The translations under genes and the position numbers were made by a program. Below are positions 37,295 to 48,007 of a stretch of DNA of 64,000 bases, piece after piece; position 1 is the stretch's first letter, and every line of letters starts with the position of its first letter. The stretch is from Escherichia coli (GTDB taxonomy: Bacteria > Pseudomonadota > Gammaproteobacteria > Enterobacterales > Enterobacteriaceae), in NCBI RefSeq assembly GCF_030013595.1, contig NZ_CP122768.1; one strand, 5' to 3'. The notes beneath the pieces are model-generated. The model saw nothing but the letters and a program-made list of their open reading frames with translations, was not told the origin of the DNA and did no database searches.

Positions 37295-38773
37295 TTACGC
37301 ATTCGACCAGCTCTGGATCGAATCCGCATTCCCCAATTCCCCATGCATCACTTCATACGATTTTTTCAGGATTACATCAGTATGTTTGGTTAACTCCTTG
37401 AAAATGCCTTTATTCATCGCGTCGTAGCGTTTGGCATTGTTCTCAACAGGCATAAAGATATCTTTCACGCGAACCATTTTGTCGACAGCCGTTGCGTAAT
37501 CCGGGTATAGCCCCAGACCTACCGCCGTATTAATCGCTGCCCCCAGGCTTGCACAACCATTAATGGCGTTACGGCGTGCCGGAAGGTTGAACACGTCGGC
37601 AAAAATCTGCATAAACAGATCGCTGTTCGAACCGCCGCCAGTAATGATCACATGCTTTGCAAAGTGATTCATTTCATTACACATATTGTCGTAATTGTTC
37701 TTCAGCGTCAGCGCCACGCTTTCCAGTATCGAACGATATATCCATGCGTAATCCATGCTGGAATCAAAGCCAATCATAATCCCGCGTTTGTACGGTTCCC
37801 ACGGATTGGTCAGCCAGTCCAGCACCGTCATCAGACCATTACAGCCTGGCGGCACACAAGACGCTTTTTTGTTGAGCAAATCTTCCGGTGAAAGATCCTG
37901 TGCTTTGGCATCCTGAATTAACGACTCGCCTAACATGTCGCGTAGCCAGCTCACCGTCCACATGCCTTTGCGAATACCGTAACCTTCATACAGCAATGTT
38001 TGCGGAATAGAAGACATAATCGGCCAGTACGCCACCGGATCTTTCGGCAGTGCTTTGCCGTTCATCATCAACGCGATGTAAGTGCCAAGAGAAATTACCG
38101 CAGTTTCATCATCCAGTAACCCGGCTCCCAGTGCTTCTACCGGTTTATCACTGGTGGTACAAACAACCGGCAGCCCAGCTGGGAAATGTGTCGCCAGCGC
38201 GGCTTGAGGAGTGATATGCCCAAGAACAGTGCCCGGCATTTGCACATCAAACAGCATATGACGGGGGATATTAAACTTCTCCATGACTGCGGCATCTTCA
38301 CTCCATGCCCAGGTCTTATAATCCACCGGCCACTGACCAAAATAGTTGGCGATATTGTCTTTAAACTCGCCGGTTAAGCGATGCGTCAGATAACCTGAAA
38401 AAGAGGTGACATATGCCACGTCAGGATTCGTATGTTCGTAAGGGCGTGTAACGCGTGCATCCTGCCAGCTAATCAACGGCGCAGCTGGCGTGCCATCGGC
38501 TTTCAATAACGCACGGCAGCAACGGATGGATCCCAGACCAATACCGACAATATCTTCTTTATTCCCGGCAAACTGACTCATCAAATCGTGACCGGCAAAA
38601 CATAATGATGCCCATAAATCGTCGTCAGGATGTTCTGCGGTATCGGCATCTGGCGTGTGCATCGGCTGCAATAAGCCTTTGCCTTCGCAAACCACATTAC
38701 CTTCCAGATCATACATCACCACTTTTGTGCTCTGACTTCCGCCATCAATCCCTATGATGTATTTTTTCGACAT
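37295..38773 (-). CDS. ygcE: FGGY-family carbohydrate kinase YgcE
   Basis: 492-aa ORF recognised as YgcE; FGGY N-terminal motif IGIDGGSQSTK. Confidence 0.9.
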   Translation of the reverse strand: MSKKYIIGIDGGSQSTKVVMYDLEGNVVCEGKGLLQPMHTPDADTAEHPDDDLWASLCFAGHDLMSQFAGNKEDIVGIGLGSIRCCRALLKADGTPAAPLISWQDARVTRPYEHTNPDVAYVTSFSGYLTHRLTGEFKDNIANYFGQWPVDYKTWAWSEDAAVMEKFNIPRHMLFDVQMPGTVLGHITPQAALATHFPAGLPVVCTTSDKPVEALGAGLLDDETAVISLGTYIALMMNGKALPKDPVAYWPIMSSIPQTLLYEGYGIRKGMWTVSWLRDMLGESLIQDAKAQDLSPEDLLNKKASCVPPGCNGLMTVLDWLTNPWEPYKRGIMIGFDSSMDYAWIYRSILESVALTLKNNYDNMCNEMNHFAKHVIITGGGSNSDLFMQIFADVFNLPARRNAINGCASLGAAINTAVGLGLYPDYATAVDKMVRVKDIFMPVENNAKRYDAMNKGIFKELTKHTDVILKKSYEVMHGELGNADSIQSWSNA

Positions 38774-38799
38774 GATTTTTCTCCTGTAATTTTCTGGAC

Positions 38800-40077
38800 T
38801 TACTTGCTGCTAGCCATAGCAGGGGCGCTATCAGCAGTACGAATTTTTTGGAACAGCAAAAAGGTAAAGACGATCACCATGGCAAGCGCCGCCATGCCCA
38901 TCAGCCACATATTGCGGTAGGCTTCTGCAGCGGGCAGGGTGTCTTGCCAGTAGCCGATAATCGGGTAAACGAAGACATCCGGCAGGAATCCAATCACCGA
39001 ACAAATACCTACCGTGGTGCCCATAATGTAAGACGGTGTTCTCGCTTCGCCAGGGCAGGCCCAGTACAGCCCGCGTGAGGCGTAACAGGTGAATCCCAGC
39101 AGTAAAATCAGGCCAATCCCCATCGCGACCGATTGCGGGTTAGAGTTCGTGACGAGCAGGGCAGTTAACGCCAGCAAGCCGAGTACGGAAAGGATTTGGA
39201 TCACGCGGGTAGGGGATTTCACTTTGCTGTAGGTGGAGATAATGCCACCAAGTGGGCCGCACAGTGCGCGGAAGATTTTGTTGATCACAATCCCCATGTA
39301 GCTCGCCGCCACCAGCGACATGCCGTACATTTCGGTCAGATAGTTGGTGGAGTAACTCAGAATGGCGTAGATGGTGAAGACACCAAAAATCACCATGCTG
39401 CAATACCAGGTGGTGCTGATGCGCAAAACAGCCAGGATGTCGCTAAGCTGGAATGACTGTTTTTCTTCGTTATTGGTATTGCGCAGGTTGTTGTTATCGC
39501 TAACAAAAAACCAACACAAAATGCCCAGCAGAATGTAAACCACACTATAGATAATAATGACCGTTTTCAGGCTGGCGCTGTCATCCGGTGCAAAGCGAGA
39601 AAAGACCCACATGGTAAACACCGCCAGCGACATTACACCGACGCCGCGCAGCCCTTCCATCCAGCCCATAATTTTCCCTTGCTCGCTATGATCGCCCAGC
39701 AACGAGGCGGCTTTAATCGACACCGACCACAGCATTAAAATCGTCGTTATCGCAAAGGCGACCTGAATACAGAGCATTACCCACAGCGGTGGATATGTTG
39801 CCATTAACAGACCCAGTAATCCGGTAATGATCATCGCGGAAGTAATCATTTTGCGGTGTGAAAATTTATCGGCAATAACGCCGCTGGGGGCATAAAGAAT
39901 AATAGCCGCAATACCAAAGGTACTCATTATTAAACCTATCTCGGTATTGCTGAATCCCATAAATTTCGCCATGGGAATTTGATAAATATAACGTAAATAA
40001 GCCAGGTCGAAACTAACGCCGCCGCTAAAACTAATTATCGCGAGGGTTATCCAACGGCGATATGAGTTGTGTTGCAT
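38800..40077 (-). CDS. yqcE: MFS transporter YqcE
   Basis: 425-aa polytopic membrane ORF recognised as YqcE. Confidence 0.9.
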   Translation of the reverse strand: MQHNSYRRWITLAIISFSGGVSFDLAYLRYIYQIPMAKFMGFSNTEIGLIMSTFGIAAIILYAPSGVIADKFSHRKMITSAMIITGLLGLLMATYPPLWVMLCIQVAFAITTILMLWSVSIKAASLLGDHSEQGKIMGWMEGLRGVGVMSLAVFTMWVFSRFAPDDSASLKTVIIIYSVVYILLGILCWFFVSDNNNLRNTNNEEKQSFQLSDILAVLRISTTWYCSMVIFGVFTIYAILSYSTNYLTEMYGMSLVAASYMGIVINKIFRALCGPLGGIISTYSKVKSPTRVIQILSVLGLLALTALLVTNSNPQSVAMGIGLILLLGFTCYASRGLYWACPGEARTPSYIMGTTVGICSVIGFLPDVFVYPIIGYWQDTLPAAEAYRNMWLMGMAALAMVIVFTFLLFQKIRTADSAPAMASSK

Positions 40078-40099
40078 ATCGTATTCCCATTTGTAATAG

Positions 40100-46468: not shown

Positions 46469-46484
46469 AAATTATCCTTATTAT

Positions 46485-46745
46485 TTATCCAAAACGGTAG
46501 GTGATGCCGAATCCGGAAGGCGGATAGCGCCACTGTTGTAGTGTTGATTCGTCGCACAGCAAACGGCAGGTGCCACACTCCAGGCAGCCGCGATAATCAA
46601 CGCGTAAGTCACCTTCCGGTGTGAGCGAAAAAAGACCAGCCGGACAAGCGTTAATCAACCGTTGTACCGTCTGACGCTCAACGGAGTCAGCCGGAACAAT
46701 GTGCGGCGCATCGGCAACGCGCCAGAGATTACGGGCTACAGACAT
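46485..46745 (-). CDS. ygcO: Ferredoxin-like protein YgcO (FixX paralogue)
   Basis: ORF 46485..46781; likely start MSVARNLW giving 86 aa; Cys cluster CLECGTCRLLC. Confidence 0.8.
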   Translation of the reverse strand: MSVARNLWRVADAPHIVPADSVERQTVQRLINACPAGLFSLTPEGDLRVDYRGCLECGTCRLLCDESTLQQWRYPPSGFGITYRFG

Positions 46746-48007
46746 CGCAGACTCCTGATAACATCGCCCGCCAGATGCCACAGGCCGTGACGACGTAAAT
46801 GACGCCAGAATAACTGGCGCAGCGGTGGAACAGGTTTATCACCCTGATCCCATAAATCGCGGGAAATATCCTGCATTAACGCAGGCCACGCACGGTACCA
46901 TCCAGGGCGTTGCAAAAGCGCCGGAACATGCTGATAACGTTGTAGAACATCCCATAGCAGGCTGCGCTCGACGTTGTGATGATAAAGCGCAAACAGATTT
47001 TGCGGCTCGCGGTGCTGGCAGGCGCTTATCAGCGTTTGTGCCGCCGCCTGCGCGCCAGTTAGCGCCATATCCATGCCGCGCACGGAAATTCCGGTATTGA
47101 CGCAACTGCGCAACGTATCGCCCACCAGCAGCCAGCCGTTACCGGCGTATTGCACCGGCATACTGTGCAAGCCACCTTCTGGCACCAGATGCGCACCATA
47201 CTCCAGTGATTCCGTGTTTTTGATAAGCGGGCGCACTGCCGGATGCGTTTTAAAGCGAGCCAGCAGCTCGCATGCCGGAGCACGACTTTGCGTAAGGGAG
47301 GAGAGCGGGCAAACAATCCCTAACGAGAGCGTTTGTTGATTAGTATAAAGAAATGCGCCGCCGGGTAAGTCATCACAGATCCCGCCGCTGAACAGCAACG
47401 CTGCGCCTTCGTTATTCTCCAGATGAAAACGTTCTTCAATAGCGGATGTTTCCAGCGACAGCACTTCTTTGATTCCTAACGCCATTGATTCGCCAGCAGG
47501 ACGAGTCACTAACCCGTGACGTTCAGCCAGGACGCTGTTGGCACCTTCTGCCAGCACCACATAACGGGCGCGGAGAATATCGTCACCACAAATGACACCA
47601 CACACCCTGCCGTTTTCTTCATACAGCGCATCCACCGTCGCACCAGGGATGCATTCGACACCTTCTTTTTCGGCTTCGGCAACCAGCCACGGATCGAACC
47701 GTGCACGTAATACACTCCAGGATTCACCGCCGGGCTGTAAGCTGGAAAACGTCGTTGCGCCATCCGGCGTTAGCAGAGAAAGGCTTTCGTGAGTGATGCG
47801 TCGTTCAAGAGGCGCGGTCAGATGAAATTGTGGGAGGAGTTCCGCGAGCGCCTGGGTATATAAACGCCCGCCGGAAAGATTTTTGCTGCCGGGGATTTCA
47901 GCGCGTTCCAGTAACAAAACGGATAAACCCGCTCGCGCGCAGCGTAACGCGCAAGCGGTGCCTGCAATACCGGCACCAATAATAATAATGTCGCAGTCGT
48001 CTTCCAT
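46736..48007 (-). CDS. ygcN: FAD-dependent oxidoreductase YgcN (ETF-quinone oxidoreductase-like, FixC paralogue)
   Basis: ORF 46736..48037; likely start MEDDCDIIIIGAGIAG (FAD-binding GxGxxG) giving 423 aa. Confidence 0.85.
   Translation of the reverse strand: MEDDCDIIIIGAGIAGTACALRCARAGLSVLLLERAEIPGSKNLSGGRLYTQALAELLPQFHLTAPLERRITHESLSLLTPDGATTFSSLQPGGESWSVLRARFDPWLVAEAEKEGVECIPGATVDALYEENGRVCGVICGDDILRARYVVLAEGANSVLAERHGLVTRPAGESMALGIKEVLSLETSAIEERFHLENNEGAALLFSGGICDDLPGGAFLYTNQQTLSLGIVCPLSSLTQSRAPACELLARFKTHPAVRPLIKNTESLEYGAHLVPEGGLHSMPVQYAGNGWLLVGDTLRSCVNTGISVRGMDMALTGAQAAAQTLISACQHREPQNLFALYHHNVERSLLWDVLQRYQHVPALLQRPGWYRAWPALMQDISRDLWDQGDKPVPPLRQLFWRHLRRHGLWHLAGDVIRSLRCL

Follow-up and report, generated by a model that had tools for sequence, protein, structure and literature searches.

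The stretch of Escherichia coli DNA studied here (64,000 nt of contig NZ_CP122768.1, assembly GCF_030013595.1; this whole stretch is called the window) contains the ten contiguous genes of the ygc cluster, at positions 37295-48007. These are long-known y-genes, and the existence of the cluster is not new. The most informative feature of the locus is found between the divergent genes yqcE and ygcW, where each transcript begins with a copy of the same leader RNA element. We propose that both copies are targets of YgcP, an antiterminator coded in the same cluster, and that the genes behind them form a catabolic regulon.

Two genes are placed to the left of this divergent region, both on the minus strand: ygcE (37295-38773), which codes for a kinase of the FGGY family, and yqcE (38800-40077), the first gene of the yqcE-ygcE operon, which codes for a major facilitator superfamily (MFS) transporter similar to anion:cation symporters. 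On the plus strand we find ygcW (40393-41178), a short-chain dehydrogenase/reductase (SDR) similar to KduD and gluconate 5-dehydrogenase; ygcU (41248-42702), a FAD-linked oxidoreductase with an active site of the alkyl-dihydroxyacetonephosphate synthase (ADPS) type; ygcS (42795-44132), another MFS transporter, similar to sugar porters and to carriers of aromatic acids or organic cations; ygcR (44110-44889) and ygcQ (44886-45746), divergent beta and alpha subunits of an electron-transferring flavoprotein (ETF). The last three genes are again on the minus strand: ygcP (45893-46468), an antiterminator of the GlpP family (PF04309), ygcO (46485-46745), a FixX-like ferredoxin, and ygcN (46736-48007), a FixC-like FAD oxidoreductase. 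The ygcE, ygcW and ygcU genes are part of the conserved core described below.

All ten open reading frames are intact in the window at the expected coordinates. The best-matching RefSeq genome (99.9%) annotates the same ten names and products, and in this genome the neighbours of the cluster are queE with a CRISPR array at one end and queD-cysJIH at the opposite end. NCBIfam supports at the family level an FGGY kinase, two MFS transporters, a KduD-like SDR, a GlcD/ADPS-like FAD oxidase, ETF beta and alpha subunits, and FixC- and FixX-like proteins; none of the ten proteins reaches an NCBIfam equivalog cut-off. The gene content, names and domains given in a previous sequence-only reading of the window are borne out by the open reading frames, by RefSeq and by NCBIfam and Pfam.

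The same reading had described the cluster as an island, a label which does not fit its distribution. A megablast search with 37295-48007 finds the region in 5425 of the 5426 complete E. coli genomes, with at least 80% coverage in 5060. The ygcWU and ygcRQ genes are carried by approximately 5100 of these genomes (~94%), about 325 being without them. The G+C content of the cluster is unremarkable. A horizontally acquired accessory island is ruled out by this near-universal prevalence and base composition. We should also note that identity to the window is at least 99% in only 28 complete genomes, mostly pig isolates, while it is 95-99% in 5394. This divergence is above expectation for E. coli core genes: either the lineage of the window is an uncommon one, or polymorphism at this locus is unusually high.

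The ratio of nonsynonymous to synonymous substitution rates (dN/dS) was determined by comparing the window with two divergent Escherichia genomes and with Citrobacter. Values between 0.01 and 0.23 are found, which indicate purifying selection on all ten genes. The lowest ones (0.01-0.03) correspond to the core: ygcW with about 0.01, ygcE with 0.02-0.03, ygcP with 0.01-0.03, and ygcU within the same range. The two MFS genes, yqcE and ygcS, have 0.04-0.05, while ygcR, ygcQ, ygcO and ygcN have 0.06-0.23 (0.10-0.23 for ygcR and ygcQ). The electron-transfer genes (ygcRQ and ygcNO) have dN/dS values 5-15 times above those of ygcW, ygcU, ygcP and ygcE, at a similar synonymous rate (dS). Decaying or silent pseudogenes, an outcome which the sequence-only reading had named as contrary to its proposal, are ruled out by these values in all ten genes, whose reading frames are intact.

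No characterization of the cluster was found in the literature searched. For the enzymatic core formed by ygcW, ygcU and ygcE, neither NCBIfam (June 2026) nor this literature yielded a characterized counterpart. A published study tested ygcU as a D-serine-linked factor in enterohaemorrhagic E. coli and excluded it. The "ygcO" mentioned in a 2026 review of the nitrogen phosphotransferase system, PTS-Ntr (PMC13104625), is a misprint for the K+ efflux gene ycgO, which misleads text mining.

Leader RNAs and predicted promoters between yqcE and ygcW

The divergent region between yqcE and ygcW has 315 bp. Each strand contains a strong terminator-like hairpin followed by U7, just before the start codon. 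On the plus strand, the ygcW leader element extends over 40305-40378 (59.9 bits with cmsearch). It starts with a short helix, P1, formed by 40307-40311 paired with 40329-40333, which closes the loop CAGAGAUAAUGAGAAAG at 40312-40328. The terminator stem corresponds to 40322-40363 (19 bp) and its U-tract to 40362-40368, 25 nt before the ATG of ygcW. The folding energy of this leader is -33 to -45 kcal/mol (z-score -5.6), and its terminator is also found by a terminator scan. The yqcE leader element, on the minus strand, extends over 40094-40164 (66.3 bits). Its P1 pairs 40162-40158 with 40141-40137, around the loop UAGAGACCUGAGAAAA at 40157-40142. The terminator has an imperfect stem of 15 bp (40148-40109) and a U7 tract (40108-40102), again 25 nt before the ATG. 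The folding energy is -21.4 to -30 kcal/mol, with a z-score of -4.1.

These two leaders align in their stems and also upstream of them. The consensus of the element is 5'-GUUAC UAGAG N3-4 GAGAAAAG UAAC (variable hairpin) GUnUG CUUUUCUC U7-10. P1 is a 5-bp helix, GUUAC:GUAAC, closing a purine loop, UAGAG-N3-4-GAGAAAAG, and shares sequence with a strong intrinsic terminator, whose 5' arm is formed by the GAGAAAAG part of the P1 loop and by the 3' strand of P1.

Related loci were obtained by scanning one genome per species with a YgcP alignment, which gave 80 loci; the ten ygc proteins were then run on these loci by tblastn. In other taxa the element precedes ygcW, ygcU, ygcE, yqcE, BCCT and OpuC-like genes. 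It is found in Enterobacterales, Vibrionaceae, Bacilli, Clostridia, Negativicutes, Actinobacteria and a metagenome-assembled genome (MAG) of a spirochaete. Across five bacterial phyla it is found together with YgcP-type proteins. P1 is 97% paired in 39 diverse copies, while shifted-register controls give 19-54%. Compensatory changes in this helix from GC to AU are found in five copies, including the yqcE copy of E. coli, and changes from AU to GC in three (Listeria, a Bacillus species and Streptomyces). The terminator is likewise recovered by RNAalifold; it has 15 pairs, and compensatory changes are seen at 10.

A covariance model of the element was searched over 1.5 Mb of fetched loci. About 100 matches are found at 44-82 bits, all of them in loci containing a YgcP-type gene and the enzyme core; none of the matches of at least 44 bits corresponds to a locus with only a canonical glpP. 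The next-best matches have at most 33 bits and are mostly reverse-strand echoes of the palindromic stems. With filters off, the model finds exactly two copies in the 37295-48007 cluster, and no third target of YgcP upstream of ygcN or at the hairpins between ygcU and ygcS. Rfam 15 (E-value mode, 35500-49000) gives no match at the leaders, only a partial naRNA4 match and two chance matches: The ygc leader element is an RNA motif missing from Rfam. A metagenome scan with the exact leader motif gave just five Serratia/Rahnella-like ygc clusters and no new gene context.

The regulator which would recognize this element is YgcP. Its residues 12-184 match the full length of PF04309 (G3P_antiterm) with an E-value of 1.6e-62, and PDB entry 3kts with 1.2e-27; it has no NCBIfam match. 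YgcP-type proteins form a clade separate from the canonical GlpPs sampled. Antitermination by GlpP has been established in the glpD, glpFK and glpTQ leaders of Bacillus subtilis (Holmberg and Rutberg 1991-92; Glatz et al. 1996; summarized in PMC9604022). The glpD 5' untranslated region, a proven GlpP target, has the sequence GGUC-CUGAGAUGAGGAGA-GACC-...-GGUCUCUUUUU (supplement of PMC9604022). The ygc leaders have the layout of this glpD leader: a short helix, a loop with a tandem GAG(A), and a terminator whose base is formed by the end of the loop and the 3' strand of the helix. Lachnospiraceae leaders found beside canonical glpP genes have a like layout. In the leaders adjoining canonical glpP in six of our loci, and in the glpD 5' untranslated region, a short helix carries an nGAGA-N-GAGA loop which overlaps the terminator; one family-wide GlpP RNA model could be built from this shared architecture.

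The likeness to the GlpP system goes further. Both systems have a PF04309 regulator, a leader element at or near the 5' end of the transcript, and an intrinsic terminator between the promoter and the first gene. In both, the regulon includes a kinase whose product, a phosphate ester, would be the inducer, and a global catabolite regulator acts on top, CcpA in B. subtilis and CRP in E. coli. Nevertheless, the regulation of ygc differs from the GlpP/glp-leader system in several ways. YgcP-type proteins are about 35-50% identical to canonical GlpPs, with a clade of their own. The RNA has its own tight consensus, GUUAC-UAGAG..GAGAAAAG-GUAAC. The regulated genes are not glpFK, glpD or glpTQ, and the host is a proteobacterium with two divergent leaders. 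A more distant parallel is the ribonucleic antiterminator of BglG, SacY and LicT, where a protein-stabilized 5' hairpin also overlaps the 5' arm of a terminator, under the control of the availability of the pathway substrate. In that case the RNA motif is unrelated. YgcP has the PF04309 fold without CAT or PRD domains, and it presumably senses a metabolite, not phosphorylation by the phosphotransferase system. Antitermination by YgcP at both ygc leaders is well supported by homology with GlpP. The sequence-only reading had already assigned to the cluster an antiterminator of its own, and YgcP does belong to the GlpP family; its two leader-terminator targets had been missed.

By itself, P1 is marginal (-1.5 and +0.3 kcal/mol, as compared with -33 and -21 kcal/mol for the terminators). 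Therefore termination should be the default, and read-through would need a factor which holds P1 and its loop. When P1 is enforced, only a short hairpin is left, at 13 nt from the U-tract. One might suppose instead that these hairpins are ordinary terminators or insulators between divergent genes, with control by CRP and no participation of YgcP, as the location of E. coli ygcP in a separate operon about 5.5 kb away could suggest. However, a constitutive terminator would silence downstream genes on which strong purifying selection acts. Conservation of the sequence, both 5' of the stem and within its 5' arm, goes well beyond the needs of a stem. P1 shows covariation, the element is found only where a YgcP-type gene is present, and its layout matches that of a proven GlpP target. 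We regard control by CRP without YgcP as highly improbable.

The participation of CRP is supported by published data. Site 1 (TGTGAttacgaTCACA, 40255-40270) is a perfect consensus, with its centre 41.5 bp upstream of the predicted ygcW start at ~40304. It was among the top PhyloScan predictions for CRP in 2007, it is bound in vivo according to ChIP-seq in the enterotoxigenic E. coli strain H10407 (PMC4287617), and in vitro according to Footprint-seq, with a Kd of ~1.7 nM (PMC12871828); the sequence bound in the ygcW/yqcE intergenic region is TGTGATTACGATCACA (40255-40270). The sequence-only reading took both substrate and regulation as not established, which has to be amended as far as regulation is concerned. 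Site 2 (TGTGAgagtaaTCACG, 40198-40213) is predicted from the sequence, with its centre 41.5 bp upstream of the predicted yqcE start; a counterpart is kept in Rahnella.

Putative extended -10 elements may be read for both genes: TGaTAAAAA for ygcW (40289-40297, plus strand) and TGtTATTTC for yqcE (40171-40179, minus strand, with a predicted start near 40164). Both TGnTA elements are 17 nt before P1, a spacing which for ygcW is also found in Vibrio hannami and Rahnella. Each CRP site faces a P1 helix at a distance of 36 nt, and a spacing of 36-37 nt is kept in Vibrio and Rahnella. Transcription would start about 41.5 bp from the CRP centres and 2-3 nt before P1, and this geometry suggests that both are class II promoters. 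In Firmicutes the element likewise begins a few nt after the -10 hexamer. Several regulon promoters of Firmicutes, in three loci, contain TGAAAACG / TGTAAGCG between -35 and -10. These sequences look like half of a cre site for CcpA, and in Gram-positive bacteria they may take the place of CRP control. On the whole, we are confident that the ygc genes of E. coli are controlled by CRP together with antitermination by YgcP at the two leaders.

A few other features of the locus should be mentioned. The gap between ygcU and ygcS contains two tandem hairpins on the plus strand (42709-42739 and 42743-42764), found by folding and by terminator scan; the intergenic fold has a z-score of -4.6. The internal hairpin reported in the sequence-only reading is real and is the second of these two, its coordinates having been off by one. 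This second hairpin (CGGCTTCYC-loop-GRGAAGCCG, with a U-rich tail) is kept with compensatory changes across Enterobacteriaceae: Citrobacter, Klebsiella, Enterobacter, Yokenella, Pluralibacter and Raoultella. According to the covariance model these hairpins are not YgcP-type elements. They are probably a partial intrinsic terminator or a 3'-end stabilizer, separating the expression of ygcWU from that of ygcSRQ. The CRISPR array which had been placed at the boundary of the cluster is indeed found there: It is a type I-E array (36323-36716) between queE and ygcE, with about 6.5 units of the repeat GAGTTCCCCGCGCCAGCGGGGATAAACCG. No cas genes adjoin it, and it is the sole tandem array with a score of at least 80 in the window. 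The convergent ygcQ-ygcP gap contains a palindrome similar to repetitive extragenic palindromic (REP/BIME) sequences at 45795-45827, with a sub-threshold naRNA4 score of 29 bits (gathering threshold 59.5).

Conserved core, enzymes and transporters

Four genes, ygcP, ygcW, ygcU and ygcE, travel together across phyla in the loci we have examined. Identity to the counterparts is 62-86% for YgcW, which maintains these values even in Firmicutes and Actinobacteria, and 57-83% for YgcU; YgcE is found beside the other three across phyla with 42-58% identity. The core is present in Enterobacterales, Vibrio, Photobacterium, Listeria sensu lato, Halobacillus, Gracilibacillus and Salibacterium, and further in Clostridia, Sporomusa, Enterococcus raffinosus, E. 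malodoratus, Streptomyces, Saccharopolyspora and an alphaproteobacterial MAG. Three independent contigs with precomputed Pfam annotation corroborate it. The other genes are more variable. Orthologues of yqcE are found in 49 loci, while ygcS, ygcN and ygcO are limited to Enterobacterales, and transporters differ by lineage. No aldolase, isomerase or epimerase is conserved with the core in the neighbourhoods examined. The sequence-only reading had treated the ten genes as one unit. This is correct for ygcP, ygcW, ygcU and ygcE, whose co-occurrence does not agree with an independent distribution of the members, and does not extend to the ETF, FixCX-like and transporter genes.

Some lineages have particular arrangements. 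In E. raffinosus and E. malodoratus the cluster is expanded, with two ygcW paralogues, an OpuC-like ABC system and a regulator which by its appearance is of the RpiR/SIS type; a second, degenerate copy of the RNA element (~32 bits) precedes the first ygcW. In Pantoea, Erwinia and Serratia proteamaculans (five loci, at ~4.3-9.9 kb in each), ygcS is apart from ygcU and heads its own operon. By eye, this operon contains a formaldehyde-activating-enzyme-like protein, an aldo-keto reductase and an aldehyde dehydrogenase, with a divergent LysR-type gene; ETF genes are absent. The moeAB, iaaA and gsiA genes which flank the core in Pantoea and Serratia were discarded as ordinary chromosomal neighbours, which are uninformative.

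Concerning the enzymes, the nearest structures to YgcW are KduD and gluconate 5-dehydrogenase, and the nearest solved structure to YgcE is the autoinducer-2 kinase LsrK. All of them act on R-CHOH-CH2OH termini. The XylB, LsrK and GlpK models of NCBIfam match residues ~118-460 of YgcE, and PF00370 and PF02782 are recorded for its orthologues. The nearest PDB entry to YgcU is ADPS (5e-40, as compared with 1e-25 for glycolate oxidase and 1e-22 for LctD). When YgcU is aligned to 4bby with HMMER, R419, Y578 and H615-617 of ADPS correspond to R262, to the Tyr of NMYFVY and to the HHH of HHHGIGK. These ADPS-type motifs are present in 58-63 of 64 orthologues. The metal site of GlcD and LctD (GHxxDGNxH ... 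EHGxG) is absent; YgcU has GHSSHSYQNGTNMYF and HHHGIGK. Judging from these alignments, YgcU keeps the catalytic residues of alkyl-DHAP synthase (DHAP, dihydroxyacetone phosphate) and not those of lactate or glycolate dehydrogenases. We class it as ADPS-like and not as ADPS: the adjoining ETF genes speak against a strictly redox-neutral cycle, while ADPS itself exchanges an acyl group for a fatty alcohol at C1 of DHAP in a redox-neutral way, without an external electron acceptor, and the N-terminal region of ADPS is missing.

The same evidence bears on the proposal that YgcU and YgcRQ form a D-2-hydroxyacid dehydrogenase/ETF complex of the LctD-EtfAB kind and that the cluster oxidizes a 2-hydroxy acid. 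GlcD is the best NCBIfam match for YgcU (144 bits, below the cut-off), LctD of the lactate dehydrogenase/ETF complex of Acetobacterium is among its PDB matches, and ETF genes adjoin ygcU. Against this, ADPS scores far better than LctD, 5e-40 as compared with 1e-22, and YgcU has HHHGIGK in place of EHG and lacks the GHxxDGNxH metal site. Besides, a genuine GlcD-type oxidase with its own ferredoxin-domain ETF co-clusters in Clostridia, and such a pathway leaves no role for a kinase or for a phosphate-sensing GlpP homologue. We find this proposal very unlikely. The second oxidase is found in strict anaerobes and Photobacterium (five loci), where the cluster contains a canonical FAD oxidase of the GlcD/LctD type in addition to YgcU; the clostridial one has canonical GlcD metal motifs. 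Clostridium sediminicola and Geosporobacter also have a second ETF pair, whose alpha subunit has a ferredoxin domain, as in the bifurcating LctBC type (according to Pfam in the case of C. sediminicola). This suggests a 2-hydroxy acid as a downstream product in clusters with a second oxidase.

The comparison with ADPS (AGPS; PDB 4bby and 2uuu) has its own limits. YgcU has the VAO/PCMH FAD fold with equivalents of Arg419, Tyr578 and His615-617. As in the ADPS pathway, ygcU is paired with an SDR gene, and there is also a kinase which could act as an alkylglycerol kinase. Unlike ADPS, YgcU does not have the N-terminal extension of about 150-200 residues (residue 60 of its 484 amino acids aligns with 215 of 658), its gene is accompanied by ETF genes and belongs to an inducible catabolic operon, and its predicted substrates are small and polar, not lipids. 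In eukaryotic ether-lipid synthesis, according to a published abstract (PMC7517302), ADPS is followed by an SDR, alkyl-DHAP reductase. The core might then be biosynthetic, with YgcU making a DHAP ether from an imported alcohol such as choline and YgcW reducing the product. The ADPS-type residues of YgcU agree with such a role, as does an SDR partner which parallels alkyl-DHAP reductase; the alcohol could come in through BCCT/Opu transporters. On the other hand, activation by CRP and substrate-inducible antitermination are hallmarks of catabolic operons, the cluster has no acyltransferase which could make acyl-DHAP, and a link from ETF to quinone would have no role in this synthesis. A biosynthetic core is, in our opinion, barely credible.

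The electron-transfer genes form a FixABCX-type set: ETF beta, ETF alpha, a FixC-like flavoprotein and a FixX-like ferredoxin. All of them are below the NCBIfam equivalog cut-offs, for example 379 bits for YgcN (cut-off 466) and 84 bits for YgcO (cut-off 166). YgcR and YgcQ are very divergent, with E-values of 1e-8 to 1e-21 against FixA/FixB-type models. The module had been described as FixABCX-like, and NCBIfam agrees, the four proteins being paralogues rather than FixABCX itself. This part of the cluster is a divergent paralogue of fixABCX and ydiQRST of E. coli. The four-protein architecture is the same, and the module goes with a flavoprotein pathway of its own, as is the case for fixABCX. 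Unlike those systems, the ygc genes are split into two convergent operons; outside Enterobacterales the module is not found, the core can do without it, and its rate of evolution is 5-15 times higher. Next to the fix genes are the cai genes, which include a BCCT carrier, the transporter CaiT. The ygcNO genes are presumed to be the link between ETF and quinone.

ETF genes are found beside ygcU in all strict anaerobes and most facultative anaerobes sampled, and they are absent in all strict aerobes sampled. They are also missing in Listeria, Pantoea/Erwinia, S. proteamaculans and Ewingella. In one V. hannami assembly and in Leminorella richardii, ygcRQ and ygcNO are fragmented. The electron-transfer module looks dispensable in some lineages.

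The transporters give an indication about the substrate. BCCT carriers are part of the regulon in V. hannami, Sporomusa, three Halobacillus species, Salibacterium, Dethiosulfatibacter and C. sediminicola. A four-gene ABC system of the OpuC/OsmF type is found in Salsuginibacillus, Gracilibacillus, a Syntrophomonadaceae MAG and the two Enterococcus species. In three species these BCCT or OpuC-like genes have their own copy of the RNA element. Both families carry quaternary-ammonium or sulfonium solutes; we do not know of any BCCT or OpuC-type transporter for neutral polyols or sugar acids. Therefore, as judged from gene content, the substrate probably belongs to the glycerol-linked compounds of quaternary-ammonium or zwitterionic type. 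Glycerophosphocholine and deacylated head groups of betaine lipids would be candidates.

The sequence-only reading had proposed a different substrate, a polyol or sugar acid, with uptake, phosphorylation and an oxidation coupled to ETF. Spelled out, the MFS transporters would import this compound, YgcE would phosphorylate it and a GlpD-like YgcU would oxidize the phosphate ester, with ETF and the FixCX-like proteins carrying electrons to quinone and YgcW as an ordinary sugar dehydrogenase; the cluster would then resemble GlpK/GlpD/GlpP, for another polyol. A catabolic role under cAMP-CRP is maintained here. The combination of a kinase, a flavoprotein and a GlpP-family regulator mirrors glpK/glpD/glpP, the presence of ETF genes beside ygcU in all anaerobes sampled and their absence in aerobes suit a net dehydrogenation, and the transporters of the enterics belong to MFS types whose relatives include carriers of sugars or sugar acids. 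Nevertheless, a polyol or sugar acid is not the best reading, because of the BCCT/OpuC-like transporters in the regulon, some of them under the same RNA element, and because of YgcU, which keeps the ADPS catalytic triad and not the site of a generic alcohol oxidase. Moreover, a C4-C6 polyol would need an isomerase, aldolase or epimerase in order to enter central metabolism, and the core has none conserved with it. We consider this substrate possible, on balance unlikely.

A proposed catabolic regulon

We propose that the ygc locus works as a catabolic regulon with two levels of control. Divergent transcription would start from two class II promoters which depend on CRP and are placed back to back. 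Each transcript would start within about 3 nt of the RNA element, and by default the terminator would stop transcription after about 65 nt. By analogy with GlpP and the glpD leader of B. subtilis, YgcP with a phosphorylated pathway intermediate would bind P1 and its UAGAG-N3-4-GAGAAAAG loop. Binding would block the terminator, because the P1 loop and the 3' strand of P1 form its 5' arm, and polymerase would read into yqcE-ygcE on one side and ygcW-ygcU(-ygcSRQ) on the other.

The substrate of the enzymes would be a small polar compound, attacked at its glycerol-like end (R-CHOH-CH2OH). The secondary alcohol would be oxidized, the primary alcohol would be phosphorylated, and flavin chemistry at C1 of the resulting 1-substituted DHAP would yield DHAP and the released group. 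If the substrate is a 1-substituted glycerol, as we suggest, the route would go through a 1-substituted dihydroxyacetone and its phosphate. YgcRQ (ETF) and YgcNO (FixCX-like) would carry the electrons of the YgcU flavin to quinone when oxygen cannot accept them.

Several points weigh against this proposal. The covariance model gives at most 22 bits (20-22) in canonical glpP loci, so the homology of the ygc RNA to canonical GlpP leaders rests on architecture. An H-type pseudoknot would in principle allow P1 and the terminator to form together, so that their mutual exclusion partly assumes a protein on the loop. E. coli and other enterics use MFS transporters, not BCCT or Opu, and E. coli already has GlpQ and UgpQ, which hydrolyse glycerophosphodiesters. 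Finally, the distribution of ETF genes among anaerobes and aerobes suggests a net oxidation by YgcU, while a pure ADPS exchange is redox-neutral.

Different parts of the proposal deserve different degrees of confidence. The complete explanation, dual control with the scheme for enzymes and substrate, appears to us moderately probable. For catabolism acting on a glycerol-like terminus we see an even chance. A quaternary-ammonium-linked substrate in E. coli itself is a tentative idea, somewhat unlikely; E. coli, using MFS carriers, may take a related compound. It is doubtful that ygcW, ygcE and ygcU form precisely the three-step route, with the C1-X bond broken by covalent flavin catalysis of the ADPS type, release of DHAP, and a GlpP paralogue sensing the intermediate through the leader RNA. 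Glycerophosphocholine, glyceryl-trimethylhomoserine from betaine lipids, or a related gut metabolite are candidate substrates of this route.

In summary, the value of this analysis lies in an explicit and testable regulatory mechanism, a lead to the substrate class, and the reporter assay which results from them. A leader-reporter fusion should respond only to the true substrate when it is taken up and phosphorylated, so libraries of compounds may be screened. Ten contiguous genes of unknown function in the best-studied bacterium are concerned, with a core which Firmicutes and Actinobacteria have in common with it at a protein identity of 60-85%. GlpP-type antitermination, so far a Gram-positive paradigm of glycerol metabolism, would be extended to Proteobacteria and to a different pathway. 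If true, no GlpP-type riboregulation would have been described in E. coli before this one, which uses a dedicated leader RNA found across phyla, and the three-step route would be the first catabolic use of alkyl-DHAP-synthase chemistry. Flavoenzymes of this kind may have a catabolic role, and glycerol-linked quaternary amines an unrecognized fate in gut and marine bacteria.

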